From NCBI GenBank assembly GCA_029856525.1, contig JAHQXC010000016.1, positions 1 to 21,238 on the forward strand: a stretch of DNA of 21,238 nucleotides, in the 5' to 3' direction. Shown piece by piece: positions 1,681 through 20,033 of this stretch. Position numbers and translations under genes: made by a program. Below the pieces are notes generated by a model. The model was not told the origin of the DNA. It saw nothing but the letters and a program-made list of their open reading frames with translations, and did not search any database. This DNA is from Candidatus Odinarchaeia archaeon (GTDB taxonomy: Archaea; Asgardarchaeota; Odinarchaeia; Odinarchaeales; Odinarchaeaceae). The first letter of the stretch is position 1; each line of letters starts with the position of its first letter.

Positions 1681-4600
1681 GCTGCGACTGCTTAACTTTA
1701 TCGCTCTCGAAAAGTGATTTAATATTCATTTTAACTATTTCAAGCCTTTCAGCTAAGTATTCAGGGAGCTTATATTTTTCAATTATTCTCTCAGCCACTT
1801 CAACGTATTTTTCAATTCCACCTTTATAAACAGTTGGGAGAATCTTCCCCCCGCATCCTGGATTATAACATACACCGTTTAACGGGATACGCCGATATTT
1901 CCTATTACAACGCTGGCATCTAAACTGTTGTTTAGTGAACGCTCCGAGGTTACCTATAATATCAGGGAGGAAATGTGAGAGTAAAACTCTTAAAGCAACA
2001 TCTGAAACGTTAACAGCGCGTATTCTCTCAGCCATACCGAGCTGGGCTTCAACTTTTTCAAACATTGTCCCCAGCTTTTTATAAGCTGTCTCGGATGGTC
2101 CAATATTAATATTAGAAGTGTTATGGGTGAACTTGAAACCTTCGAAGACATCTTCTTTTCCAAGGCGATGTTCAACTATAGGTATCGTTTTCACAATCTT
2201 CTTAGGGTCGGTTAACTTTAAAGTCTCCTCGTAGAATTCCAGCGGGTAACCTGCTCCTATATCCATGTTCCAAACTTCATCATCTACTTCATAAGGGTTA
2301 AGCCTTGTTGTTAAAACTAGAGGCGCATCCATCATCCCCCCTCTTTTACCTGGTAGAAAGCTTTTACTGAAGTTTAGGAGAGCGTCTAACCCTAAAATAA
2401 TAGAATCCTCATCTGAATCACAGTTTCTTCTCTTAGCCGCATGCCAGAAGGGATGAGCGTATCCTGTACTCGTTTTAGTTACCCCTATTATCCTCCCTAG
2501 AATACCGGCTGAAGTATGCGGTGCTAATCCTATGATTAAATGTCCTATAAGATCAGCGGAGTCTTTAATATTATAGTATGGTTTTAAACCGTAATTTTTC
2601 TCCAGCAGTTCATCTATAAACCTCGCTGTTTTAATAAGGCATTCAGCAGCGGCTTCAGGTATAACTACGTCCTGAACTTTTAACTCGAGGATTTGATCCT
2701 CGTTTACAAGAGGTTTCCCTTCATAATCGTGAGTGTAACCTAACTCTATCAACTTTGACACCGGGGTTTTAACCTCAGACGGCTTGAAATGTGTTAGAGG
2801 AGTGTTAGTTGCATCGAATCTTATAGTCCCATCCTTGTATACGCTGAGACCGTGTTTAGCTCTTAAAATCCCTTTCTCTAACTGTTCAGGTATTTTTAAA
2901 TCGCTCGTCATCCCTACTACGCATTTAACATCCACGTTACCGTTAACTTCAAGCTTTGAGACCGCGCTCTGATATATTGAGCGGATATCCAGTTTTCTTT
3001 TCTCGTAGGGCTTCATCTCCTTCTTACAGTTCGGGCAGATGTTTTTACTCGAGGAAGTACCGCAGCTGGAGCAAACATTTACAATCACAGTTTTACAACC
3101 GCAGTTTTCACATATCATTCTCAGAGTTCTTCTACCGCATTTAGGGCATTGAAGATTGGCGACCTCTACTTCAATAAACCCGTTTTCACAAGCTTTTAAA
3201 ACGCTTCTCTTACTTCCACCTTCTAACCCTATTGGAAACAATGAGTTGACAGGGGGGGCCATAGCGCGCATTTTAGCTTTTTCAGGCCGCCCCATTCGAG
3301 CGCCTATATAGTGAGGGGCCTTAGCCATAATCTTAATTTTTGATATCATATTTACAGCTTCAAGACCGTTACATGCTTTTTCCTCAACGTCTTTAAGATT
3401 TAAATTATTCGAATCTAATACTCCTAGAGATTCTAGAAGCGGTAGCGTATGCTCTTCGATAATTATTTTACCGTCTTCAAATCTATGAGGTAGACATATC
3501 CGCTCTAAGATCTCTTTAACAGCAGGGTTAACACTCAGCCTTGCTATGTTTTTAAAAGAGTTGTATGCTTCAATTAAGGCTTCACGTAGTTTTAAAACAG
3601 CTTCAACCTCGATATCATGCCAGTGATATGTGTAATCTGGGTGTAACGGTATTCTAAGATTTTTACTTAAGGCGACAGCTTCTATAGGCGTCGGTTTAGC
3701 TGTGAACGGGCTGCTCGCTAGCTCGATGAGGCGGTTCACGGTTAACCCGACTCTCTTAGCAGCTTCATTATAATCTCCTGCGAAGTTTACTTCAACACTC
3801 TTTTTTAAGTCTTGAACCCACCACTCCGGCACATATCCTGATTTAATTAAAGGATGATTGTTTTCTAAGAATTCACCGTAACCGACTAGAAGATCACCTA
3901 GGAAAAGAATTTTTTTAACATTTTTAGCGTGTTTTAAAGCGTCCTCAACTGTGTTAACACGGATCACCGAGCCGTCTTTTAATAAAACTATAGGCCCGTC
4001 TATGGTATCCACGGGGAGAACCACCGCTCCTTTACCAGGCCGCTCCATTCTTATATGTGTTCCAGGGGCGAGGAAGCCGTCTAAGATATACATTGTAGCA
4101 GGGTTCACGCCGACAGCAGCAAACCCGGTGTTACGTGACCTCCCGTATCTTAGTCTAAAGCCGCCTACCGCAGACGGATGCGCGAACACAGGGCGGCCGG
4201 CGATCACATCTGAAATATACTTGCTACTAGGCTGGATTTCACATGTAGCGGTCTCTGTTTTACTCTCAGACGCCGCTGTTTTTTTAATATTTTTAAGCCA
4301 ATCCCATCCCTCTATTCCAATGCTTTGAACTATTTTAGCTAGTTTAGGCGCCTTAGAGAGAACTCCATCGTTTAAAACGAGAACCGCGCCCCCTCTAACC
4401 CGGTTTGTTTCAATTCTAGGCAGATCCCTGTAACCTGTGACCTCCTCTTTCTCAGTCGGCTCACCTGTAATTTCAACCGGTATATTTCTAAGAGCCTCCC
4501 TCCTCTCTTCAGTTGTGCTAGGATATTGGAGATTCATTATCTTATCATATAAGTCGATCTCTTCAACGAATCTCTCAATCTCCTCTTCTGTAGGTTTATA

Positions 4601-7544: not shown

Positions 7545-8632
7545 CTAGTATGTGACACTCCTCCACTCCACTCCAAGCTCATCAGCCAGTCTTCTCACTC
7601 TACTAACTTCTTCAATGTAAACGCGTCTAGATACATCAGAGTACCGGCTGTCGCTTATAGCAAGATAATAGGGCCTGTATTGAGCCATTATGTTAACAGG
7701 GGCTTTAGGCGTCTCCTTAGCTATCCACTCTAAGATAGGCTTCGAACAACACTCGTAATGGTTAGGTAATACTAGATGCCTGATGATGATAGATGAGAAG
7801 CCTTCAACTGAGTTAAGATAAGCTTTTTTAATATTCTCTGTAACTATTTTTAAATAATTATCAACGTTTGAAAGCCTTTTAGCGCATTCATCTGAACCGT
7901 ATTTAAAATCCGGCAGCCATAAATCAATCACATCTAGTAGAATACGCATCGTCTCAGTTGAATGATAGAAATTACTATTCCATATCTGAGCTATATTGAT
8001 ATCGCTTAAAATTAACGCTCCGAGTATAGTATACAAGTTAGGTGTAGGCTCACCTCCAACCCAGTTGATATTCCTCGCACCTGAACTGTATAAATCAGAT
8101 ATAATATAAGCTAGCTGGGTTTCACTTACAGGATACCCTGATCTAGGTTTAAAAGATATATCATAGTTCTGGCATTGCGTACACGCGTCTAAAGGCGCGT
8201 GTTATACGCGCATCTAAAAGTACACCCGCTGAAGAAAACAGTCCCGGATGGTATAAGCTGGCTTTCCTCCCCCATGTGTAGAAAATAAGATGAGACTCTA
8301 GCTGTTTTATTAACACCGCAAAACCCTGTGGCGCCGCTCAGCCTGTTAGCCTGGCATCTCCGCTCGCAGAGAATGCATTTCTCAAGTACCCGCTCGACTA
8401 TAATCTTTTTAACTTCAAGATAGTTTAACCCGTCGAAACCCTCCTTTTCGCTTTCACAGGGATTCAGCGCGGCTTTCTCATAGAATTCAGCGAATTTAGC
8501 AGCTAATCTCTCATGCACTCTCATCGCGTCATCGAATCCTATAGGCGTGGCGGTAGGCTCCCGGATTCTTTTACAGGTAAGATATTTAGCCGGCTTTATA
8601 TTTTTCACCACACTCTCGTAATGGGTGAACAT
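7545..8632 (-). CDS. PflX-like (COG1313-type) radical SAM protein, two exons: 8632..8204 and 8174..7545, predicted 352 aa after splicing
   Basis: Exon 1 has CILCERRC..RLSGATGFCG, HMGEESQL and GTVFFSGCTFRCAY. Exon 2 continues CQNYDIS..NINWVGGEPTP..WNSNFY..DFKYG..RHLVLPNH..NIMAQYRP. The two track ORFs (8189..8632 and 7545..8036) are halves of one gene. Confidence 0.88.
8175..8203 (-). other. 29-nt BHB-type mRNA intron
   Basis: RNA GC-GCGU-AU|A-ACACGCG-CCUUUAGA-CGCGUGU-ACGC-AA|U-GC: perfect 4-bp central helix, two 3-nt bulges, 7-bp intron stem. Removal gives TGC GCG TAT TGC CAG (CAYCQ). Confidence 0.88.
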
Positions 8633-8759
8633 TCACTTCTCTCCTTTTCATTCTAATAAGAAATAACGGTATCAGAGAATTAAATCTTATCTGACGGTTA
8701 ACGCTAATTATTTAAGTATCTTAGGCAATTTTTCATTAAATACTGAAAGGTAACCTGTT

Positions 8760-9833
8760 ATGATACCGATCGCTAAACCGGTTATCCAAGATGAGGAGAT
8801 TAGAACTGTACTCGACGTTTTAAAATCAGGGTTTCTAGCTCAAGGTAAATGGGTTAAACAATTTGAAGACGATTTCGCCGATTACATAGGTGTGAAGTAC
8901 GCGGTGGCGACCGTTAACGGTACAGCCGCGTTAGACCTCGCTCTTAAAGCTTTGAAAATCCGCGAAGGCGATGAGGTGATAGTCCCAGATTTCACATTCA
9001 TCTCCACAGCTAATTCAATACTATTCCAGAACGCTAAACCTGTGTTCGCGGATATAGAAGAGAATTTTTACACTATAAGTGTAAGCGACGTATTAGAGAA
9101 AATAACCAGTAAGACTAAAGCTGTTATCTGCGTTCACCTGTTCGGTCAACCATGCGATTTAAAAGCGTTAAAAGAGGTTTGCGAAGACCATAACCTATTT
9201 CTAATAGAGGATTGCGCTCAAGCGCATGGTGCTGTATATGACTCGTTTAAAACAGGGTCTGTGGGATTAGGCTGCTTCTCTTTCTATGCTACAAAGAATA
9301 TGACTACAGGTGAAGGTGGAATGATCACAACTAATGATAAAAATATCATGGAGAGGCTGAGACTGTTAGTAAACCACGGTCAACTAGAGAAATATGTTCA
9401 CGGTGTTTTAGGTTATAATCTGAGGATGACTGATATTCAAGGAGCTTTAGGAGTAGCTCAATTAAAGAAACTCGACTCTTTAAACTTGAAGCGTATTCAA
9501 AACGCTGAGTATTATAATAAGCATATAGTTAACTCTAAGACGGTTAAACCTGTTAGACGCGCGAACACAGTTCACGTATATCACCAATATGTTTTAAGAG
9601 TTGAGGAGAGAGATCGATTTATTAACTATCTTAACTTGAAAGGCGTGGGGACAGCTATCCATTACCCTACACCCATTCATCTGCAACCTTTATATCAGAA
9701 GCTGAATTATCCCAGAGAGTTATGCCCAGTCTCCACTAGGGTAGCCGGGGAAGTGGTCAGCATACCTGTACACCCGCTTTTATCAGAAGACGAGTTAAAA
9801 TATATAGTTGAAACAGTGAACGAGTGGTGTTAA
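8760..9833 (+). CDS. wbpE: DegT/DnrJ/EryC1/StrS family PLP aminotransferase (WbpE-like)
   Basis: VNGTAALDLAL, IEDCAQAHGA, FSFYATKNMTTGEGGM, GYNLRM, IHYPTPIH motifs. Symbol inferred from operon context. Confidence 0.85.
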   Translation: MIPIAKPVIQDEEIRTVLDVLKSGFLAQGKWVKQFEDDFADYIGVKYAVATVNGTAALDLALKALKIREGDEVIVPDFTFISTANSILFQNAKPVFADIEENFYTISVSDVLEKITSKTKAVICVHLFGQPCDLKALKEVCEDHNLFLIEDCAQAHGAVYDSFKTGSVGLGCFSFYATKNMTTGEGGMITTNDKNIMERLRLLVNHGQLEKYVHGVLGYNLRMTDIQGALGVAQLKKLDSLNLKRIQNAEYYNKHIVNSKTVKPVRRANTVHVYHQYVLRVEERDRFINYLNLKGVGTAIHYPTPIHLQPLYQKLNYPRELCPVSTRVAGEVVSIPVHPLLSEDELKYIVETVNEWC

Positions 9834-9834
9834 A

Positions 9835-10773
9835 ATGAATATTGGCGTGATAGGTATCGGCAACATGGGTCGTAATCACCTCAGAGTTTACTCTGAGTTA
9901 AGATGGGTTGACCGCGTATATTATTATGATTCAGACCCTGTTAGACTCGCTCAATTAGCAGGTAAATTCGAAGAATGCATAAGCTGCGAGTCTCTGCCGG
10001 AGTTGCTTAAAAAAGTGGATGCGGCCAGCGTCTGCGTTCCAACTGAGAAGCATTTCGAAGTCGCTAAAATGTGTTTAGAGCAAGGTGTAAATATATTAGT
10101 GGAGAAACCGGTGGTCGCTAATTTGAAAGAAGGAGAGGAGCTTTTAAAAATTCTCAATAAAAGCGGTCTTATCTTAGGGGTAGGCCACATAGAGAGATTT
10201 AACCCTATTATTAGAGAGGCGAGTAAACTTTTAGATAACCCTAGATACATTGAGATTAAAAGACATAACCCCGCTTCCGCTAGGGTGACGACATCCTCTG
10301 TTATAGATGATCTGATGATCCATGACGTCGACATAGTTTGGAATATCTTCTTTAAAGGGAGAACAGAGTATGAAATCCATTCATTCGGAGACTATAATTT
10401 CTGTACAGCGATAGCTCTCTTCGGTGAAAACATAGTATTCCTATCAGCAAGCCGTCTTTCACCTAGAAAAATTAGAACCATATATATTGAAGGCGACGGT
10501 TTCTCTATAGAAGGCAACTTCATGGATCAAGAGGTTTACGTATATAAGAAGCCCTCTAAATACTCTGTGGAAGACGATAAATACGTTCAGGAGAATGTTA
10601 TAGAGAAAGTTTTAATTAATAAAATCGAGCCTTTAAAAGAAGAGCTGAAACAGTTTATTATCTCCGTGAAAACGAATAAACCGTTCCCTGTAACCCTCGA
10701 GCAAGCGTTACTTAACCTGAAAATCGTTGAGGTGATAAAAAATAAGCTTCAAGCATCCAACCGCCGTGGTTGA
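9835..10773 (+). CDS. wbpB: Gfo/Idh/MocA family NAD-dependent oxidoreductase (WbpB-like)
   Basis: GVIGIGNMGRNH, LVEKPV, VGHIERFNP, DLMIHDVD motifs. Symbol inferred from operon context. Confidence 0.82.
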   Translation: MNIGVIGIGNMGRNHLRVYSELRWVDRVYYYDSDPVRLAQLAGKFEECISCESLPELLKKVDAASVCVPTEKHFEVAKMCLEQGVNILVEKPVVANLKEGEELLKILNKSGLILGVGHIERFNPIIREASKLLDNPRYIEIKRHNPASARVTTSSVIDDLMIHDVDIVWNIFFKGRTEYEIHSFGDYNFCTAIALFGENIVFLSASRLSPRKIRTIYIEGDGFSIEGNFMDQEVYVYKKPSKYSVEDDKYVQENVIEKVLINKIEPLKEELKQFIISVKTNKPFPVTLEQALLNLKIVEVIKNKLQASNRRG

Positions 10774-11305
10774 AAGCGATAAAATAGGTGATGGAACAAA
10801 AATATGGCATTTCGCTCACATCCGTGAGGGAGCTGAGATCGGCAGAAACTGTGTGATAGGGAAATCAGTCTACATCGACGCAGGTGTGAAGATAGGGGAT
10901 GGAGTTAAAATCCAAAACTTCGTCTCAGTTTATAAAGGCGTTGTAATCGAAGACGACGTCTTCATCGGACCGTCGGTCACGTTCACAAACGACCTGTTCC
11001 CCCGCTCCTATATATGGGATGAGAGCAGAATCACAAAGACGCTTATTAAAAAAGGCGCTAGCATAGGCGCCAACTCCACAATTATTTGCGGTATAACTGT
11101 TGGAGAGTACGCGCTTATAGGGGCGGGAAGCGTGGTGTCGAGAAATATACCAGACTTCGGGTTAGCTTACGGAAACCCTGCTAGACTTAAAGGATACGTA
11201 TGCTACTGCGGCCGGAAACTAGTTAAGATACTCGAGAAAACAACAGATAAAACAGTGTATATATGCTCACATTGCAATAGGAGAGTTGAAATAAAAAATA
11301 TTTAA
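10742..11305 (+). CDS. wbpD: Hexapeptide-repeat (LbH) N-acetyltransferase (WbpD-like) with C-terminal Cys-rich ribbon; probable ATA start
   Basis: HPTAVVE..IGDGTKIWHFAHI..FIGPSVTFTND..GASIGANSTI..GNPAR..CYCG..CSHC. The conserved HPTA lies upstream of the track's GTG at 10766. GAGGTGA precedes ATA at 10742. Confidence 0.85.
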   Translation: MSFKHPTAVVESDKIGDGTKIWHFAHIREGAEIGRNCVIGKSVYIDAGVKIGDGVKIQNFVSVYKGVVIEDDVFIGPSVTFTNDLFPRSYIWDESRITKTLIKKGASIGANSTIICGITVGEYALIGAGSVVSRNIPDFGLAYGNPARLKGYVCYCGRKLVKILEKTTDKTVYICSHCNRRVEIKNI

Positions 11306-11337
11306 CTGGGAATAACTTCACCAGGGGGTTTATTACA

Positions 11338-12525
11338 TTGAAGAATAGTATAGCTGTGGTAGGTTTAGGTGCAGCCGGTCTCCCATTAGCCGCGGTGATC
11401 GCGTCTAATAATATAAATGTTATCGGAGTTGACTTAGACTCTAAAAAATGTGATTTAATAAACAACGGTGTTAACCCTCTGCCAGATGAACCTGGTTTAC
11501 AGGAGCTTATCAAAGAATACGGTGGCTGGAGGTTGAAAGCGTCAACCAGTTATAGGGATGCAGCTGACTGCCCCGTGTACATAATAATCGTCCCATTATT
11601 CATAGATAAAAACCATCTACCCGACTATAATTATTTAAACAACGCGGTTAAAAATATTGGAAGAATATTAAAGAAAGGTGACATCGTAGTCGTTGAAACC
11701 ACTATTCCACCGTACACCACTGAAACATTAATTAAGAGATGGCTGGAGGAGGAGAGCGGTCTAAAATTAGGAGAATTCTATTTAGCTCACTCCCCTGAAA
11801 GAATAATGACCGGTTACAGTATATCACGCCTCAAAGATTTTCCAAAGGTAATAGGGGGAGTTGACAAGGAGAGCGGGTTGAAAGCATACGATGTTTATAA
11901 ACAATTCATACCAAATATTAAACTCGTTTCCTCCGCTAGAGTCGCCGAGTTCATAAAAATAATTGAAGGCTGTTATAGAGATGTTAACATAGCTTTAGCT
12001 AATGAACTTTTCAAAATAGCTTCAATTCTCCAAGTGGATTTCAATGAAGCCAGAGAATACGCTAACCACGCTTACTGTAATATTCACCTTCCATCTACAG
12101 GGGTAGGCGGCCATTGTATCCCTTACTACCCGTGGTTTTTAATAAAAGAAGCTGAGGTGAGAGGCTTCTACGATTACACGCGCCTTTTAAAAACCGCTAG
12201 AGAGATAAACGATGAAATGGTGTACTACTGGGTTAACGTTATTTTAGAAACCTGTCTTAAAATAGATAAACCTTTAAACCAGATTAAAATCTGCGTGAAA
12301 GGTATAACATACAGGAAAGGTGTTAAAAGCACTCATTACAGTAGGAATATGAAGATCGCTGAAATACTTAAAGAGAAAGGATTTAACGTTTACGTGTTCG
12401 ATGAACTTCTCTCGAAAAAAGAGATTGAAAACCTTGGATTAAATCACCTGCAACCAGAGTCAGCGGATATAGTATTCGACAGCTTCAATTTAGAGGTAAA
12501 AATAAATCCCTGTCAAAAACTATAG
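11338..12525 (+). CDS. Nucleotide-sugar 6-dehydrogenase (WbpA/WecC family)
   Basis: VVGLGAAGLP Rossmann motif, VVETTIPPYTT, HSPERIM, CYRDVNIALANE, catalytic GVGGHCIP. C-terminal domain looks short or divergent. Confidence 0.87.
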   Translation: MKNSIAVVGLGAAGLPLAAVIASNNINVIGVDLDSKKCDLINNGVNPLPDEPGLQELIKEYGGWRLKASTSYRDAADCPVYIIIVPLFIDKNHLPDYNYLNNAVKNIGRILKKGDIVVVETTIPPYTTETLIKRWLEEESGLKLGEFYLAHSPERIMTGYSISRLKDFPKVIGGVDKESGLKAYDVYKQFIPNIKLVSSARVAEFIKIIEGCYRDVNIALANELFKIASILQVDFNEAREYANHAYCNIHLPSTGVGGHCIPYYPWFLIKEAEVRGFYDYTRLLKTAREINDEMVYYWVNVILETCLKIDKPLNQIKICVKGITYRKGVKSTHYSRNMKIAEILKEKGFNVYVFDELLSKKEIENLGLNHLQPESADIVFDSFNLEVKINPCQKL

Positions 12526-12535
12526 AAGGATTACT

Positions 12536-13603
12536 ATGAAGATAGCCTCGGTCGTCGGCGCGCGGCCTAATTTTATAAAACTAGCCCCTTTATTTAAAAC
12601 GCTTAAAATGAGATTCACTCAATTAATCATTCATACAGGTCAACACTACGACTATGAAATGGATCGAATATTCTTCGATGAATTAAAAATACCTGACCCT
12701 GATTATCATCTCGGCGTCGGTTCAGGAACCCACGGCTACCAGGTTGGAGAAATATTAAAGAAAACCGAGGAGGTTTTAATTAAAGAAAAACCGGAGCTGG
12801 TTATAGTATACGGTGATACTAATTCAACTTTAGGAGGGGCTCTAGCTTCATGTAAGCTAGGTATTAGAACAGCGCATGTGGAAGCAGGGTTAAGATGCTT
12901 CGATCGAAGGATGCCTGAAGAAATCAACCGTGTTTTAACAGATCACAGTTCTGATATACTATTCTGCCCTACTCGTCTAGCTGTTTTAAACTTGAAAAAA
13001 GAGGGGATAACGCGAAACGTATTCAGAGTAGGGGATGTGATGGTTGACAGTATTAAAGAAAACTTGAAGATAGCTGAGAGAAAATCAAGTATACTAGACG
13101 AGTTATGTTTAAAACCTAAAACTTATATTTTAGCCACCTTACACCGAGCTGAAAACACTGATACACTTGAACGGTTAAAAGCAATTCTAGAGGCTTTCGA
13201 AAGAATACCGAATTTAGTTTTCGTCTGCCATCCGCGTACTAGGAGAATTCTTGAAGAAAACGGTTTATTCGCTAAATTATCTGAAAAAATCTTAATGACA
13301 CCCCCATTAGGCTACTTCGACATGCTTATACTTGAAAAAAACGCGGAGAAAATATTAACGGATTCAGGCGGAGTTCAGAAAGAAGCTTATCTTTTAAACG
13401 TGCCCTGCGTTACTTTGAGAGAGAGAACTGAATGGGTTGAAACAGTTCAAGCCGGCTGGAATATTCTAGTAGGCGCTGATAAAAATCTGATATTAGAGAG
13501 CGCTAGAAGTTTTAAACCAGTCTCTGAAAAGAAGAAGATTTTTCAAGCAGGGGCTTCTAAGAAGATTCTGAGAATCCTTGAAAACTATTTATATAATACT
13601 TGA
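12536..13603 (+). CDS. wecB: UDP-N-acetylglucosamine 2-epimerase, non-hydrolysing (WbpI-like by context)
   Basis: VGARPNFIK, HTGQHYD, VYGDTNSTL, HVEAGLR, PEEINR, TLHRAEN, TDSGGVQKEA motifs. Confidence 0.92.
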   Translation: MKIASVVGARPNFIKLAPLFKTLKMRFTQLIIHTGQHYDYEMDRIFFDELKIPDPDYHLGVGSGTHGYQVGEILKKTEEVLIKEKPELVIVYGDTNSTLGGALASCKLGIRTAHVEAGLRCFDRRMPEEINRVLTDHSSDILFCPTRLAVLNLKKEGITRNVFRVGDVMVDSIKENLKIAERKSSILDELCLKPKTYILATLHRAENTDTLERLKAILEAFERIPNLVFVCHPRTRRILEENGLFAKLSEKILMTPPLGYFDMLILEKNAEKILTDSGGVQKEAYLLNVPCVTLRERTEWVETVQAGWNILVGADKNLILESARSFKPVSEKKKIFQAGASKKILRILENYLYNT

Positions 13604-13609
13604 AGTATA

Positions 13610-14656
13610 TTAAACCTGTTTATACGCTTTTAGAATATTGTCTTCGTATAGCTCCCAGATTAGATTTTTCACAGCGAATCTCCTAGTCTCCTCACCTTTC
13701 TCCTTCAGATACTCGCCTTTATCTTTGAGATCTTTTAAGGTTCTCTCTAAATCCTCCGCTTCAACACCTATCCCTAAGTCTCCTAATATTCTAGAAACGT
13801 TAGTTAAACTCTTAACGTATAATATACAAAGCCCGGCGTGAGCGTATTCACTAAACTTATTAGCCAGAAAATAATGGTGGTCACGGCACGGCTCATAATA
13901 TAATAATCCTACAGTAAACTGGGTAAGATAATTTAAAAGCTCTTTATGGCTCATAAATCTTTGAACACTAACATACTCGTTGAGTTTAAGCTTCTTATTC
14001 GTAATTAAAGTGAGCCTACCATATTTACCTGTTAAGAATAATTTCACTAAGCGATCTATATTCCGAAAGTAAGCGCGGTTAGGGTAATCGTTACCGATGT
14101 AAACGTATGCGACCTCCCGGCTCTTAGGTTTGAAATCAATATTCTTCGACTCCTCTAAAGTAATATAATTAGGCAGTAAATAAACATGTTTCGCGTATTT
14201 TTTATATAATTCGAGAATAGTCTCGTTAACGGTTAACGTAGGTGTTTCAGTTATAATCTCCTTACACCACTCTGAAAATTTATCTAACCCTTTATGTTTA
14301 ATATATCTTAGCAGAGGGTTTCTATAAGGGTGTTTAGGCGGCTCTAACCAATTTTCATGAGAGTCGAAGATGAAAGAAGCCTCCAGCTCTCGGCATATTT
14401 CCGCTGCGTAAATATCATGGGCGTGGATGATATCAGGTTTAATACGTTTCAACACTCCACCGACTTTATCCCTTATTTTACCCCAGAAGTATGGTAGATG
14501 CCCTGATATCACTAAATTATTAAAATTATTAGAGTAGCCTAAATCGTAGAAGCTGCATTCTAACCCGTTTTTAACACAAGTATTCATAGCCTTCTGAATA
14601 CGGCTATCATATTCTAACCCTGTGTGGCTTAAGTGAAGTATCTTCAAGTAGCTCAA
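13610..14656 (-). CDS. GT-B fold glycosyltransferase (GT4-like, divergent)
   Basis: HLSHT..DSRIQK N-terminus, PDIIHAHD, FDSHE, NKFSEYAHAGL (GT4-like C-terminal motif). TTG start. Confidence 0.7.
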   Translation of the reverse strand: MSYLKILHLSHTGLEYDSRIQKAMNTCVKNGLECSFYDLGYSNNFNNLVISGHLPYFWGKIRDKVGGVLKRIKPDIIHAHDIYAAEICRELEASFIFDSHENWLEPPKHPYRNPLLRYIKHKGLDKFSEWCKEIITETPTLTVNETILELYKKYAKHVYLLPNYITLEESKNIDFKPKSREVAYVYIGNDYPNRAYFRNIDRLVKLFLTGKYGRLTLITNKKLKLNEYVSVQRFMSHKELLNYLTQFTVGLLYYEPCRDHHYFLANKFSEYAHAGLCILYVKSLTNVSRILGDLGIGVEAEDLERTLKDLKDKGEYLKEKGEETRRFAVKNLIWELYEDNILKAYKQV

Positions 14657-14738
14657 CTCAACTCTGAGATAATATAATATTAGCGTCTTAAAAAATAATG
14701 AAGTTTTTATTTTAATATTTATCGTATAGCTGAAAGAT

Positions 14739-14924
14739 TGGTGCGGGGGATGGGATTTGAACCCATGAAGCTTTACTGGATTAACAGAACTGTTAATCTC
14801 TACACTCTGCAGGCTTATATGCCTTGCACAGGATCTCCTCCCGGGTCTTAAGGGTCCTAAGTTTAGCCTCCTAGTAAAAATTTACTCGGATCCTGCCCCT
14901 TAGACCTGGCTCGGGAACCCCCGC
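14739..14924 (-). tRNA. trnL: tRNA-Leu(UAG) with four predicted introns and encoded CCA
   Basis: GCGGGGG/CCCCCGC acceptor stem, AGCCAGGUCUAAGGG D-arm, CAGGA/UCCUG anticodon stem, AUGGGUUCAAAUCCCAU T-arm. Removing 14863-14891, 14835-14855, 14805-14825 and 14773-14799 gives an 88-nt Leu tRNA with loop CU-UAG-GA and variable arm GCU-GUAG-AGC. Confidence 0.88.
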
Positions 14925-14968
14925 TTTACCTAATATTTTTTGATTCTAAACCTGATATAAATAATTAA

Positions 14969-15430
14969 CTATAAGTATTCTGTGAAATCTCTTTCAGTGT
15001 TACCTATCTCCGTGTCAACGACTTTATCAAATATTTTAAACGTGGATAGGTTACCGTTCCATGTTTTAAGCTTCTCCCCGTATAAGTAGTTAAACTGTTT
15101 AACAAGGTTTTTAGCTAAACCGTGAAGTTTTCTATCAGACTCAGATTTATCAGCTACAACCCCTATAGCTATCTTATCCCCTGTTTCGATAATAATCTTT
15201 ATGTGTCTTTCACCCTCTAATTTCATCTGTTTAATATAATCATCCGCAACATTCGAGACTATAGTGCTAACAGCGGAGATGAAACCGCTTAAAATATTAT
15301 ATTTATCCTCTTCACTGCATTCATTAGTATTAGTGTTCTCTCCATTGCCGGGTAGACTGTAAATTTTAGAGAATAAACAAGCACCGTCGATTCTTTGAAT
15401 CACGAAGACACAGTAGATCTTCGACTTCAT
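14969..15430 (-). CDS. Longin-like domain protein (eukaryotic-signature, membrane-trafficking/small-GTPase-associated fold)
   Basis: Pattern of N-terminal beta strands (IYCVFVIQRIDGACLFSK), helix ILSGFISAV, strands IKQMKL..IIIE..IAIGVV and C-terminal F..LYG..LKTWNGN..F..FD..VD resembles longin/profilin-like folds. Pattern recognition only, no profile search. Confidence 0.62.
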   Translation of the reverse strand: MKSKIYCVFVIQRIDGACLFSKIYSLPGNGENTNTNECSEEDKYNILSGFISAVSTIVSNVADDYIKQMKLEGERHIKIIIETGDKIAIGVVADKSESDRKLHGLAKNLVKQFNYLYGEKLKTWNGNLSTFKIFDKVVDTEIGNTERDFTEYL

Positions 15431-15548
15431 AAAGCGTCTCCTTAAACCCTCATGTTAAATTCAACCCTATTAGTTTGTGGACAATGCTTTTAAATCTTAG
15501 TGTAACCATTTTTTAACTGTATTATTTTAGTGAAACGGGGATGTGAAT

Positions 15549-15824
15549 ATGACTTTAGCTTTCCTGGTGTTCTATAAGGTGAGGGCTTTATCAAACCAGG
15601 AGAAGGAGGATGCTAAAAGAGAATGGGATGAGTTTAAAGCGAAGCTTCCAAGCGATATACGCATCGTCGGCGAATACGAGCATGCATGGGGGTCAGCTTA
15701 CAACGGTGTATTCATCTTAGAAACAGATAACATGACCTCTTTCCTAAACTGGTGGCCGAAGTTTAGGGATTTAACCCGCTGGTATGTTACTGAAACAAAA
15801 ACAATAACCTGCACTAAAGCATGA
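15549..15824 (+). CDS. Small hypothetical protein, probably dimeric alpha+beta barrel (GYD/DUF3303-like)
   Basis: About 91 aa with beta-alpha-beta-beta-alpha-beta pattern (IVGEYEHAWGSAYNGVFILET). ATG 15549 has GGGG upstream; GTG 15543 is the alternative start. Confidence 0.55.
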   Translation: MTLAFLVFYKVRALSNQEKEDAKREWDEFKAKLPSDIRIVGEYEHAWGSAYNGVFILETDNMTSFLNWWPKFRDLTRWYVTETKTITCTKA

Positions 15825-15861
15825 AAAATAGCGGCGTTCTAAAATATTCTCTGCGCGGATA

Positions 15862-17091
15862 CTATCCTCTAAAAATTTGATGGTATAAATCTAGTAGCCT
15901 CCTCTCGTCATCCCGCCAATTATAATATTCTCTCACAGCGTTGAAACCATTCTCACCCATTTTAAAAGCTAACCCCCTGTCTTTATAAAGTTTTAAAATA
16001 CACTCTGCAAGCTCTTTATAATCCTCTGAAGGGAATAAGAGCCCGCAATTATGCCCTTCAATTATTCTTGTAAACGTCCTAGTCCTGGTGGCTACCACCG
16101 GTTTACTGAAAGCCATATACTGGAATAACTTATGCGGCAGCGCGTCATTAGTGTGCGCGCTTAACTTATAAGGTATTAAACAGATATCGCTGATGTGAAT
16201 ATACGAAGGAATAAACTTATACTCCACCCATCCTGTAAACTCTACATTTCTCTCTAAGTTCAACTCCCTAACCAAATTTTTTAGAGTAGAATCATAGCCT
16301 GCAGGTCCACCGCCACCGACTATTAATATTTTCAACTCCGGTATTTTTTCTACAAGCAGGGACCCCGCTTTTAAAATTGTTTCTATCCCTCTATGAGGCC
16401 CGAAACCTCCTATATAACTGACTGTGAAAAAACCTTTATATTTCTCGATAATATCTGGATACAATCTAGAATTCAACAAGTTTTCCACGAGATCGGTATT
16501 CCTTACTATGGTAATCTTTTCCGCAGGAACCCCGCAGTCTCTAACATAATGCTCCGCGGTCTCCTCCGTTATCGTAATAATACGAGAAACACTTCTTAAA
16601 ACACTTCTCTCATAATTTCTCCATCTTCTAAAAGGCAGTAGAAAATTGAATACCCTGGATTTAAAGCTTTTATCTGTACTCAACCAGTCTTTAACCGCTT
16701 CAGGGTAATTCTCGTGAAGATCAGCTATAACCGGTATACCGTGCTTCTCAGCTACCTTCAAACATGTTTTAACTAAAGGCAGATCGTGAACATGTATAAC
16801 CTCAACGTTAAACTCTTCCACCGCTCTATTTAATTCTTTAAGCCACAATGGACTTACAAAATTAATATAATAGTTTAACATGCTCCAGATCTTTCTAAAA
16901 CCTTTAATTTTAATACGTCTTAAAACATTTAAACCGTCTAAAACCTCCCACTCTAAACTATTACCCCCTTTCCAACAGATTAAATAAACGTTAACCCCGT
17001 TTTTAATTAAAACACCAGCCTCTTTAGATACTCGAATATCCGGTGGATAATAATTATCTAAAACCATTAGAACACTTTTAGGTTTTCTCAT
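15862..17091 (-). CDS. Glycosyltransferase family 4
   Basis: YPPDIRVSKEA, VIHVHDLP, IADLHENYP, YIGGFGPHRGIE, FTGWV, PHKLFQYMAFSKPVV motifs. Confidence 0.9.
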   Translation of the reverse strand: MRKPKSVLMVLDNYYPPDIRVSKEAGVLIKNGVNVYLICWKGGNSLEWEVLDGLNVLRRIKIKGFRKIWSMLNYYINFVSPLWLKELNRAVEEFNVEVIHVHDLPLVKTCLKVAEKHGIPVIADLHENYPEAVKDWLSTDKSFKSRVFNFLLPFRRWRNYERSVLRSVSRIITITEETAEHYVRDCGVPAEKITIVRNTDLVENLLNSRLYPDIIEKYKGFFTVSYIGGFGPHRGIETILKAGSLLVEKIPELKILIVGGGGPAGYDSTLKNLVRELNLERNVEFTGWVEYKFIPSYIHISDICLIPYKLSAHTNDALPHKLFQYMAFSKPVVATRTRTFTRIIEGHNCGLLFPSEDYKELAECILKLYKDRGLAFKMGENGFNAVREYYNWRDDERRLLDLYHQIFRG

Positions 17092-17265
17092 TCACTCCCC
17101 TTCTAAAATAGGCTATTATCAGAGATTAGACTGGTTTAAACTTTCTAAATTTAAAAATATTTTAATTCAAGTAAATCTAAAAATAATATTTAAACTTGAA
17201 CGAGAATATATTAGCTTATAATCAGCTATACCTACCTGTAAACCTAAACGCATTCCTGCAAAAGC

Positions 17266-17272
17266 TTTAAAA
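17266..17272 (+). promoter_or_regulatory. Candidate TATA box of tRNA-Glu gene
   Basis: TTTAAAA preceded by purine-rich AAAAG (BRE-like), about 32-38 nt upstream of the mature tRNA 5' end. The surrounding DNA is AT-rich, so specificity is low. Confidence 0.4.
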
Positions 17273-17303
17273 CTATTATATTATAATTTTTAATTCACTA
17301 GTT

Positions 17304-17429
17304 GCCGCGATGGTGTAGCTCGGCCAAGCATCTGGGGCTTTCGATCCGAGAACCTGCTGCTTGGAGGAGACCCCCCAAGTAGAGTTAAACTCTTGGGAGA
17401 CTCGGGTTCAAATCCCGATCGCGGCACCA
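17304..17429 (+). tRNA. trnE: tRNA-Glu(UUC) with two predicted introns and encoded CCA
   Basis: GCCGCGA/UCGCGGC acceptor, UGGGG/CCCCA anticodon stem, UUC at 17340-17342, UCGGGUUCAAAUCCCGA T-arm. Removing 17344-17371 (37/38) and 17380-17399 (45/46) gives a 78-nt tRNA with AGAC variable loop. Confidence 0.92.
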
Positions 17430-17696
17430 TTTTTAATTAGTTTTTCCTGTCCGCATTGTAAATTTAGGCTAGCCGGTTCCAGATAGTTTAAATTAAAATT
17501 TTAATCATAATAGTTTTTAGTAAGCTTCGAACCTTTTATAAAGTCTAGTTAAACCGCTAATAATTACACAGCGATACTATTTTATTAAAGAAAAATTTTT
17601 ATTATTTAATTTCTTTTTAACGGCTAATAGTTTAATAGTAACTTCTACTGTTAAAAATGTTAAAAGTGAAGTAAAAACATGCGGTGCAATGAAAAT

Positions 17697-18779
17697 ATGA
17701 GGATAGCTGTGATAATTGGGACAAGGCCTGAAATAATAAAAATTTCACCGGTGTTACGGAGATTAGAGAAATCCTCTTTAGAATTCAAGGTGATTCATAC
17801 CGGTCAACATTATTCTTCTAATATGGATAAAATATTCTTCGACGAATTAGAATTAAAAACACCTGATTATAATCTTCACGTAGGCTCAGGTTCCCACGCT
17901 GAGGAAACAGGTAGAATGATTATAGAGGTTGAGAAGACTCTTAAAAAAGAGCAGCCTAGTCTTGTATTAGTGTTAGGTGACACTAACACAGCTTTAGCCG
18001 GAGCTTTAAGCGCTGTGAAGCTTCGAATAAAAATCGCTCATATCGAAGCTGGTTTAAGATGTTATGATAAGAATACGCCTGAAGAGGTTAACAGAGTTGT
18101 AGTAGACCACGTATCAGATTATTTATTCGCTCCAACGGAACGAGCTGTTAAAAATCTTTTATCAGAGTCTATTAAAGAAGAAAACATTTTTCTTACAGGT
18201 AATACGATAGTCGACGCTGTGTACGAGAACTCTAGTATCGCTGATAAAAAATCTAGTATTTTAAGTAGATTAAACCTTAAAAGAAGAGAATATTTTTTAG
18301 TTACAGCACATAGAGAGGAGAACATCGATTTTAAAGAGAGATTTAACGGTATTTTAAACGGTTTAAAGCTTATCGCTGACTTTTTTTCAATTCCAATCAT
18401 CTATCCTATTCACCCGCGCGCGCAGAAGAATATTGAAAAATTCGGTTTAAAGATTCCTGATGAAATCTTTTTAACACCCCCTTTAGGATATCTTGATTTT
18501 CTGAAACTGCTGATAAATTCAAGACTTGTGTTAACTGATTCAGGTGGAGTACAGGAGGAAGCGTGCATTTTAAAAATACCATGTGTAACACTACGCGACT
18601 CTACTGAAAGACCTGAAACTTTAACAGTTGGCAGCAATTTTTTAGTCGGAACCAACCCTGATAAAATTATTGAGGGTGTAAATCATATGCTTAAAAAGAA
18701 CACTGACTGGGAGAATCCTTTCGGAGACGGTCAGGCGGGTGAGAGAATAGTCAATATTATAAAATGTTTGAAGGTGTAG
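17697..18779 (+). CDS. wecB: UDP-N-acetylglucosamine 2-epimerase, non-hydrolysing
   Basis: IGTRPEIIK, HTGQHYS, LGDTNT, HIEAGLR, PEEVNR, TAHREEN, TDSGGVQEEA, NPFGDG. ATG 17697 preferred over 17679. Confidence 0.93.
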   Translation: MRIAVIIGTRPEIIKISPVLRRLEKSSLEFKVIHTGQHYSSNMDKIFFDELELKTPDYNLHVGSGSHAEETGRMIIEVEKTLKKEQPSLVLVLGDTNTALAGALSAVKLRIKIAHIEAGLRCYDKNTPEEVNRVVVDHVSDYLFAPTERAVKNLLSESIKEENIFLTGNTIVDAVYENSSIADKKSSILSRLNLKRREYFLVTAHREENIDFKERFNGILNGLKLIADFFSIPIIYPIHPRAQKNIEKFGLKIPDEIFLTPPLGYLDFLKLLINSRLVLTDSGGVQEEACILKIPCVTLRDSTERPETLTVGSNFLVGTNPDKIIEGVNHMLKKNTDWENPFGDGQAGERIVNIIKCLKV

Positions 18780-18782
18780 AAT

Positions 18783-20033
18783 ATGAAGGTTTGCGTTATA
18801 GGGTTAGGCTATATAGGTCTTCCAACCGCATGCCTTATAGCCGGTGCAGGCCATAAGGTTGTAGGCGTTGATATTAAAACTAACATTATTAACATGTTGA
18901 ACGCTGGTAGACTACCGTTCAAAGAAAAAGGCTTAGATGAATTATTTAATAATGTGAAAGATAATATGAGTTTTAAAAACCAGCCTGAAGAAGCCGACGT
19001 ATTCTTGATAGCGGTTCCCACACCGTTAGATAAAGAGGCTAAAATAGCCGATCTATCTTATGTTCGAAAAGCATGTGAGAGCATTAAAAAATATGTTAAA
19101 GAGGATAGCCTGGTAGTTGTGGAAAGTACTGTTCCACCTGGAACCTGTGAGCTTATCGTATCATCGATTTTAAATAATAAAAAGCTTATAGCCCACTGTC
19201 CTGAACGAGCTATGCCAGGTAACACCTTATATGAAATGGTGTATAATGATCGTGTAATAGGCGCTAACAACGATAACTCGAAAGAGATAGCTGGAAGATT
19301 ATACTCTTCATTTGTTAAAGGCAAAATCTTTTACACCGATCTTAAAACAGCTGAGATGGTTAAATTAATGGAGAACACCTTCCGCGATATTAACATAGCT
19401 TTAGCTAACGAATTCGCTCAAATAGCTGAAGATATAGGTGTAAACATATGGGAGGCGATATCTCTTGCAAACAGACATCCTAGAGTTAATATTCTCTCCC
19501 CTGGTCCGGGTGTAGGCGGCCATTGCCTTGCAGTCGACCCATGGTTTCTAATAGAAAACTCGTCTAAAAGTAAAATGATAAGCCTCGCTAGAGAGATAAA
19601 CGACTCTATGCCTAAGCATGTAATGGAGTTAGTTAAAAAAATAGGTGTCCCCTCGGGAGAGACGCTAACAGTTTTAGGCGTCGCTTATAAAAGGGATGTG
19701 GATGACACCCGTGAAACACCAGCTTTAAAATTTATTAGAATCGCTGAAAACGAAGGCTATAATATTAAAATACACGATCCTTATGTTAAAGAATTCGAGT
19801 ATCCTATTTTAGACTTAAAAGAAGCGGTTACCGGGAGCAGCTGCATTGTTTTATTGACCGATCATTCAGTTTTCAAGAGTATCCCACCGGATAAAATCGC
19901 CTGCTTTATGAAGGATAAAAATTTAGTTGACACTCGAAACTGTTTAGACCATAATTTATGGGTTAACCACGGGTTTAAAGTAAAAGTTTTAGGTAAAGGG
20001 GATGCCAGTGAACTTAAGCTTTCAAAACTTTAA
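18783..20033 (+). CDS. wecC: UDP-N-acetyl-D-mannosamine dehydrogenase
   Basis: VIGLGYIGLPTA, IAVPTP, VVESTVPPGT, HCPER, ENTFRDINIALANE, PGPGVGGHCLAVDPWF, GVAYKRDVDDTRETP. Directly follows wecB. Confidence 0.9.
   Translation: MKVCVIGLGYIGLPTACLIAGAGHKVVGVDIKTNIINMLNAGRLPFKEKGLDELFNNVKDNMSFKNQPEEADVFLIAVPTPLDKEAKIADLSYVRKACESIKKYVKEDSLVVVESTVPPGTCELIVSSILNNKKLIAHCPERAMPGNTLYEMVYNDRVIGANNDNSKEIAGRLYSSFVKGKIFYTDLKTAEMVKLMENTFRDINIALANEFAQIAEDIGVNIWEAISLANRHPRVNILSPGPGVGGHCLAVDPWFLIENSSKSKMISLAREINDSMPKHVMELVKKIGVPSGETLTVLGVAYKRDVDDTRETPALKFIRIAENEGYNIKIHDPYVKEFEYPILDLKEAVTGSSCIVLLTDHSVFKSIPPDKIACFMKDKNLVDTRNCLDHNLWVNHGFKVKVLGKGDASELKLSKL

Follow-up and report, generated by a model that had tools for sequence, protein, structure and literature searches.

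Seven inserts of 20 to 29 nt in the contig JAHQXC010000016.1 of an Odinarchaeia archaeon are most probably archaeal bulge-helix-bulge (BHB) introns, which would be cut by the endonuclease EndA and joined by RtcB in mRNA as well as in tRNA; we put the probability of this reading at about 0.86. The window is the whole of this 21,238 bp contig (C124), part of a metagenome-assembled genome (MAG; G000) of 127 contigs (1.32 Mb, 38.5% GC, 93% complete). One insert interrupts a PflX-like radical SAM gene, four lie in a gene for tRNA-Leu(UAG) and two in a gene for tRNA-Glu(UUC). An initial annotation of the window had proposed seven introns, and these prove to be real in the lengths and order given there (29 nt in the mRNA; 27, 21, 21 and 29 nt in tRNA-Leu; 28 and 20 nt in tRNA-Glu), with 8175 and 17399 as the outer intron boundaries. 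Reading of the sequence also agrees that six of the seven begin with A (intron 2 of tRNA-Glu is the only one that starts with U) and that all seven have A as the penultimate base. That both tRNAs are multiply interrupted, and one mRNA interrupted, is borne out by BHB scoring together with restoration of the cloverleaf or the protein. The host, for which an Asgard affiliation had been raised, is an Asgard archaeon; a genome of the same genus, JAWBON01 (G003), is that of Candidatus Odinarchaeota archaeon HHBFW-2.

In the proposed mechanism, folding of the transcript would pair four nucleotides of the upstream exon with four close to the 3' end of the intron, and this central helix would be flanked by two 3 nt bulges and by the intron's own hairpin of 4-9 bp (the HBh' motif). 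A two-subunit EndA would cut each bulge 3' of its second base, with RtcB ligating the exons. Spliced in this way, the two tRNAs would fold into normal cloverleaves for Leu(UAG) and Glu(UUC). Loss of 29 nt from the radical SAM mRNA would restore the frame and rebuild the Fe-S-binding motif CxxxCxxC, so that only the spliced form could yield full-length enzyme. Most tRNAs of the genome, and five or more of its other mRNAs, would be processed by the same machinery. We infer cleavage and ligation, and the enzymes responsible, from the motifs, the restored products, conservation and selection, and the enzyme genes.

BHB motifs were scored with a script that looks for a 4 bp central helix, 3 nt bulges cut after the second base, an inner helix between intron nucleotides (h') and an outer helix between exon nucleotides (h). 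Below, the central score is the number of pairs in the central helix and bulges are written as [exon nt|intron nt]. The radical SAM gene is arranged as follows:

8204..8632, minus strand: exon 1 of the PflX-like radical SAM gene, 143 codons, ending in GCTFRCAY; residues 1-143 align with uninterrupted orthologues (tblastn)
8175..8203, minus strand: predicted BHB (HBh') mRNA intron, 29 nt, frame-shifting and containing an in-frame UAG
7545..8174, minus strand: exon 2 of the radical SAM gene, 209 codons, from CQNYDIS to the stop

The intron motif reads GCGU [AU|A] ACACGCG-loop-CGCGUGU ACGC [AA|U] GC, with all four pairs of the central helix GCGU/ACGC, an h' of 7 bp, an h of 2 bp and two 3 nt bulges. 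The minus-strand open reading frame (ORF) 8632-8189 runs four codons into the insert, where it ends in GCTFRCAYNTRL before the stop, and the frame that opens with CQNYDIS is then a different one. Excision of 8203..8175 joins CTFRCAY to CQNYDIS and gives a 352-residue radical SAM protein in which CxxxCxxC is intact; the predicted junction peptide of the spliced product is CAYCQNYDISFK. The Pfam Radical_SAM match of exon 2 (profile positions 14-156) begins at its first residue. The BHB core is the minimum free energy fold of the local 51 nt context, and also of the 91 nt context at 80 °C. The database names are radical SAM protein or putative pyruvate formate lyase activating enzyme; a search of NCBIfam gave no specific name for the protein and only sub-threshold matches of the NrdG/PflA type.

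The two interrupted tRNA genes of the window and their predicted introns are:

14742..14924, minus strand: tRNA-Leu(UAG), 183 nt, followed by an encoded CCA at 14739-14741; mature length 85 nt
14863..14891, minus strand: tRNA-Leu intron 1, 29 nt, at position 30/31 in the anticodon stem; central 3/4, h' 3, h 3
14835..14855, minus strand: tRNA-Leu intron 2, 21 nt, at the canonical position 37/38; central 3/4, h' 2
14805..14825, minus strand: tRNA-Leu intron 3, 21 nt, in the variable arm; strict motif, central 4/4, h' 4
14773..14799, minus strand: tRNA-Leu intron 4, 27 nt, in the variable arm; relaxed motif with a 9 bp h', central 2/4
17304..17426, plus strand: tRNA-Glu(UUC), 123 nt, followed by an encoded CCA; mature length 75 nt
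17344..17371, plus strand: tRNA-Glu intron 1, 28 nt, at the canonical position 37/38; strict hBHBh' motif, central 4/4, h' 6, h 5
17380..17399, plus strand: tRNA-Glu intron 2, 20 nt, in the variable loop (~45/46); central CCCA/UGGG 4/4, h' 5

Default ARAGORN found no tRNA in the window, and Rfam found tRNA-Glu only (17304-17426, 37.2 bits, with two insert blocks) and missed tRNA-Leu. The 85 nt spliced tRNA-Leu is folded by ARAGORN as a class II Leu(tag) cloverleaf, and the tRNA-Glu cloverleaf forms once both introns are removed. An automatic search over subsets of introns, judged by ARAGORN, was too permissive and gave ambiguous decompositions at many loci, and tRNA-Leu was therefore resolved by hand and by alignment with its paralogues. 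Its exons match the genes for tRNA-Leu(GAG) and tRNA-Leu(CAG), including the variable arm U-NNN-GNAG-NNN-UUC; the arm GCU-GUAG-AGC, as in the paralogues, forms only with intron 4 removed. The 6 bp outer helix of intron 2 forms only after removal of intron 1, which suggests that splicing is probably ordered, intron 1 before intron 2.

Across the genome, 35 tRNA loci were found with Infernal, ARAGORN with introns allowed and a search for the acceptor/T-arm pattern, and only 8 of them are of mature length. A 36th locus, missed by Infernal and ARAGORN, was reached through a BHB match:

C73 ~3840-3974, minus strand: tRNA-Gly(GCC), with a 28 nt T-arm intron (3863-3890) and a 29 nt anticodon-loop intron

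This gene sits between those for tRNA-Val(GAC) and tRNA-Ala(GGC). In all, 28 of the 36 loci are interrupted (~78%), with a maximum of four introns per gene, the numbers per gene being approximate. The tRNAs elsewhere in the genome are therefore mostly interrupted, in line with the genome-wide system that the initial annotation had supposed. About 10 of the 46 expected tRNAs are missing from this set, and they may be similarly hidden. The 3' CCA is encoded in most tRNA genes of the genome.

Five further coding genes contain strict BHB inserts of 27-32 nt, namely gatA, gcvPA, kae1, a PF04008 gene and a UPF0147 gene. Scanning for a BHB combined with merging of ORFs gave 470 matches against ~370 expected (1546 in a relaxed scan), dominated by ordinary adjacent gene pairs, and candidates were kept only where a conserved domain continued across the insert. 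When obvious adjacent-gene false positives were removed from the strict scan, the top four were gatA, gcvPA, kae1 and the radical SAM gene. Removal of the 29 nt insert in gatA restores GSDTGG|SVRQPA and unites the two halves of the Pfam Amidase match (2-153/156-445). The corresponding junctions are YTP|YQAE in gcvPA (29 nt; Pfam GDC-P halves 9-99/101-426) and GPG|LGPC in kae1 (32 nt; Pfam TsaD halves 7-61/64-264). The PF04008 insert is also 32 nt long. Out-of-frame ORF pairs of one family, which had been recommended as the place to look, are thus split by a strict BHB in gatA, gcvPA and kae1. The UPF0147 insert (27 nt) is in frame and detectable only by its TAA, as expected from the earlier argument that in-frame introns would be invisible to ORF callers. 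The coding-gene inserts outside the window are at:

C23:3669-3697, minus strand: coding-gene insert
C123:4019-4047, plus strand: coding-gene insert
C27:13284-13315, minus strand: coding-gene insert
C1:17691-17722, plus strand: coding-gene insert
C13:17456-17482, plus strand: coding-gene insert

All six coding-gene introns, that of the radical SAM gene included, lie where the protein motif is highly conserved and GC-rich (GSDTGG|S, YTP|YQ, GPG|LGPC, CAY|C and others), and the exon tetramers of their central helices are GC-rich (GCGU, GCGG, CCCC, CGGG, GGGG and CGCA) in a genome of 38% GC. This suggests that an intron is retained only at a site whose exon provides a stable tetramer. One hairpin that resembles a BHB, at C17:3599-3625 in a NuoB-like gene, was rejected as a false positive, because the unspliced reading already gives the canonical GCPxRPEA motif.

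The tRNA and mRNA introns have a boundary signature in common, with A first and A-purine last. A is the first base in 20 of 26 confidently placed tRNA introns and in 5 of 6 mRNA introns (25/32 in all), and the penultimate base in 23 of 26 and 6 of 6, respectively (29/32). The shared letters would fit one enzyme that acts on both kinds of transcript. There are two EndA paralogues in the genome, of 188 and 187 aa, on C56 and C61. The first, which is alpha-like, aligns with 3p1z_B, the catalytic subunit of Aeropyrum pernix (E 6e-44), and has no gap through the N-terminal region, which is the specificity-loop region of the literature. Asgard archaea, including Odinarchaeota LCB_4, have been reported to possess an (alpha-beta)2 EndA with a broad-specificity L1 loop (Kaneta 2018, PMC5829648); the EndA of the present genome would be of this (alpha-beta)2 type, and, going by the same study, its loop would allow relaxed motifs. 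The 3'-P RNA ligase RtcB is represented by a PF01139 match at C95:1006-1164. An intein with a LAGLIDADG domain interrupts the RtcB gene immediately behind profile position 50.

A further BHB intron of the radical SAM gene is found outside the genus. In Jordarchaeia (L056, JAHAWR01; L074, JAHLWX01; also L016 and L018) the same gene carries a different strict BHB intron, which is also present in a closed 3.6 Mb Asgard genome of one further lineage (L010). This second-site intron has 28-31 nt, and its position, at PSGT|IFF, is 12 codons upstream of the Odinarchaeum site:

L018:1438-1465: second-site radical SAM intron
L016:1438-1465: second-site radical SAM intron
L010:1435-1465: second-site radical SAM intron

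One pair of helix strands covaries fully here (CGCC/GGCG versus CGCU/AGCG). We regard the intron at the Jordarchaeia site as independent of that at the Odinarchaeum site.

Independent introns 12 codons apart in one gene, in different Asgard classes, raise the question of whether the introns form a mobile family that is actively spreading in the lineage by copy and paste. The high intron density would fit such a family, as would the sequence AUCCGAG with which intron 1 of tRNA-Leu and intron 1 of tRNA-Glu both start. However, comparison of all introns against all gave no intron families, the best score (19) being at the level of shuffled sequences (median 18; 95th percentile 22). Additionally, every position checked is fixed across four deeply diverged species, and a 2026 preprint (10.64898/2026.10.13.758758) found no general route of arrival for Asgard tRNA introns. 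We therefore consider active spreading unlikely. The high intron-gain activity claimed in the initial annotation is supported as past, lineage-specific gain, but not as ongoing gain, given that the positions are fixed in four diverged species and that the introns show no similarity to one another.

Far less probable is the explanation that the radical SAM gene is decaying as a pseudogene, or is split to encode two polypeptides, with a fixed 29 nt insert that is never removed. ORF callers do give two ORFs (147 and 163-218 aa), and the case for splicing is read from sequence. The gene was followed in relatives by a search of 40 related genomes, by tblastn and in 80 named loci from GTDB species genomes, and the split at this codon is confined to the four species of the genus (the present one and G001-G003). 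The ~85 loci elsewhere (other Asgard archaea, Thermoproteota, Methanomethylicia, Archaeoglobi and Thermoplasmata) are uninterrupted, in a single frame or a single high-scoring segment pair and with no second split, and the end-to-end matches among them read across the junction in one frame. There are more than 6,000 uninterrupted homologues of ~370 aa, some of them labelled Odinarchaeia from other clusters. Among the four species both exons have the same lengths and no stop codons, and over both exons the proportion of differing synonymous sites (pS) is 0.44-0.76, near saturation, against 0.07-0.24 for nonsynonymous sites (pN; 0.17-0.24 in exon 1), indicating that both exons are under purifying selection. 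In each of the four species the intron has 29 nt, of which only 1-5 differ, far fewer than the synonymous sites would predict; its four helix substitutions each change a Watson-Crick pair to G-U and keep the pairing. This shows selection on the structure of the intron. The gene is moreover the only copy in the genome, and the conserved exons, the conserved intron and the single copy together argue against a pseudogene or an assembly artefact. The break falls between the second and third Cys of CxxxCxxC, which leaves neither half able to bind the Fe-S cluster, and the same architecture recurs in five other genes.

That the long tRNA loci are themselves pseudogenes or assembly artefacts is also very improbable, slightly more so. 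The Leu gene is missed by both ARAGORN and Rfam and the genome is a MAG of 127 contigs, but the tRNA-Leu locus has 179-184 nt in the assemblies of the three sister species, one of which is a single contig. Its exon bases are invariant in all four species, and the substitutions and indels are confined to the four introns. Intron 1 has a compensatory change in its stem in G003 (TCTTGG/CCAGGA), and intron 3 has loop indels among the relatives. The four-intron locus is the only Leu(UAG) gene found in the genome, and its spliced product is a perfect cloverleaf. The tRNA-Glu(UUC) gene is likewise conserved in G001-G003.

Least probable of all is recoding, in which a programmed frameshift, or a ribosome that bypasses the 29 nt, would restore the radical SAM protein: the cbf5 introns were initially mistaken for frameshifting (Yokobori 2009, PMC2738675), but a shift of +1 or -1 would leave 9-10 additional residues inside CxxC and must pass the in-frame UAG, the geometry of the insert is exactly that of a BHB and its boundary letters are those of the tRNA introns, and no bypass signals were seen, although no search was aimed at them. 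Group I or group II introns, which have a ribozyme core of hundreds of nt, and inteins, which are protein-splicing domains read in frame, were rejected, as the inserts have 20-29 nt and a tRNA is all that Rfam finds in the window.

Several observations weigh against the reading of the seven inserts as EndA-cut, RtcB-joined introns. A genome-wide scan for the BHB motif alone gave 219 matches compared with 159-205 in shuffled sequences, and is barely enriched. The BHB motif by itself is not diagnostic, and the inserts are significant because the motif coincides exactly with boundaries set independently by the cloverleaf or the protein alignment. In tRNA-Leu, the central helix has only two of four pairs in intron 4 and three of four in introns 1 and 2, so an enzyme of relaxed specificity is required. 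For the mRNA intron, the 91 nt context is of unremarkable stability (z = -0.85) and at 37 °C favours another fold (-22.3 versus -15.1 kcal/mol). The changes in its helices within the genus are all single-sided, with no double compensatory change. Finally, the RtcB gene (L120; C95:1-1311, minus strand) is truncated by the contig end and contains the intein.

The glycosylation cluster that surrounds both tRNA genes of the window includes two tandem gene pairs, each for a UDP-GlcNAc 2-epimerase and a UDP-sugar dehydrogenase (11338-13603 and 17679-20033, plus strand). Several glycosyltransferases, a DegT-type aminotransferase and a flippase-like gene also belong to it. The large subunit of PolD is also encoded in the window.

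Archaeal introns in coding sequence have a single confirmed precedent. The crenarchaeal cbf5 intron has stood alone for more than 20 years and is stated to be the only one in an archaeal coding sequence (Schwarz 2020, PMC7714728); introns in other coding genes were predicted but never confirmed (Yokobori 2009, PMC2738675). The cbf5 intron of the Crenarchaeota (Desulfurococcales and Sulfolobales; Watanabe 2002; PMC2738675) is likewise a short, frame-disrupting BHB intron, restricted to a lineage and absent from orthologues elsewhere; the tRNA splicing machinery of hosts with a two-subunit EndA removes it, as would be the case here. In contrast, the candidates described here are in the radical SAM, gatA, gcvPA, kae1, PF04008 and UPF0147 genes, whereas cbf5 (TruB_N) is uninterrupted as an open frame of 331 aa. 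They belong to a different phylum (Asgard) and number at least six genes per genome rather than one, with splicing predicted from the DNA. An EndA substrate in mRNA is also known from HVO_1309 of Haloferax volcanii (Schwarz 2020, PMC7714728), but that intron has 46 nt and lies in the 5' untranslated region, so that the reading frame is not interrupted.

Heavy interruption of tRNA genes in Asgard archaea has already been published (PMC11291895), and the 2026 preprint describes up to five inserts per Asgard tRNA gene. The published cases likewise have several non-canonical BHB introns per gene, many of them missed by standard tools, and an (alpha-beta)2 EndA. Those studies centre on Atabeyarchaeia and Jordiarchaeia/Freyrarchaeaceae, whereas our data concern the genus Odinarchaeum, with ~78% of genes interrupted and at most four introns in one. 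The text of the preprint gave no match for 'Odin', 'Odinarchaeia' or 'mRNA', and our literature searches found no report of BHB introns in Asgard mRNA. The tRNA part of the finding is thus of a known kind, extended to the genus Odinarchaeum, and the mRNA part would add new host genes and a new phylum to introns of the cbf5 type. In eukaryotes, the splicing of HAC1/XBP1 mRNA is likewise a removal of a short intron by an endonuclease, independent of the spliceosome, with RtcB joining the exons in metazoa; there the nuclease is IRE1 rather than Sen/EndA and recognizes twin stem-loops rather than a BHB. This likeness implies no common ancestry.

A wider reading, which we hold to be doubtful, is that HBh' mini-introns have colonized tRNA and mRNA genes alike in several Asgard classes, in Odinarchaeum, in Jordarchaeia and in one or more other lineages, making the synthesis of core enzymes dependent on EndA and RtcB and possibly gated by them. 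Such mini-introns may be self-contained, requiring only a GC-rich tetramer in the upstream exon. If this were true, synthesis of Kae1, GatA, GcvPA and the radical SAM activase would hinge on the activity of EndA and RtcB. There would then be a prokaryotic layer of mRNA splicing without a spliceosome in the closest relatives of eukaryotes, possibly with a regulatory role (for example, one dependent on temperature or on RtcB).

The candidates sit in both informational and metabolic genes of an Asgard archaeon and, if they are spliced, tRNA-type splicing of mRNA would be recurrent in intron-rich Asgard lineages. Genes annotated as frameshifted or split in Asgard MAGs would then be misannotated; kae1, gatA and gcvPA would look broken, which would affect metabolic reconstructions. 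Standard tools also miss tRNA genes here, such as those for tRNA-Leu(UAG) and tRNA-Gly(GCC). If the mRNAs are spliced as proposed, it would become testable how far mRNA tolerated endonuclease-type introns close to where eukaryotes branched off.

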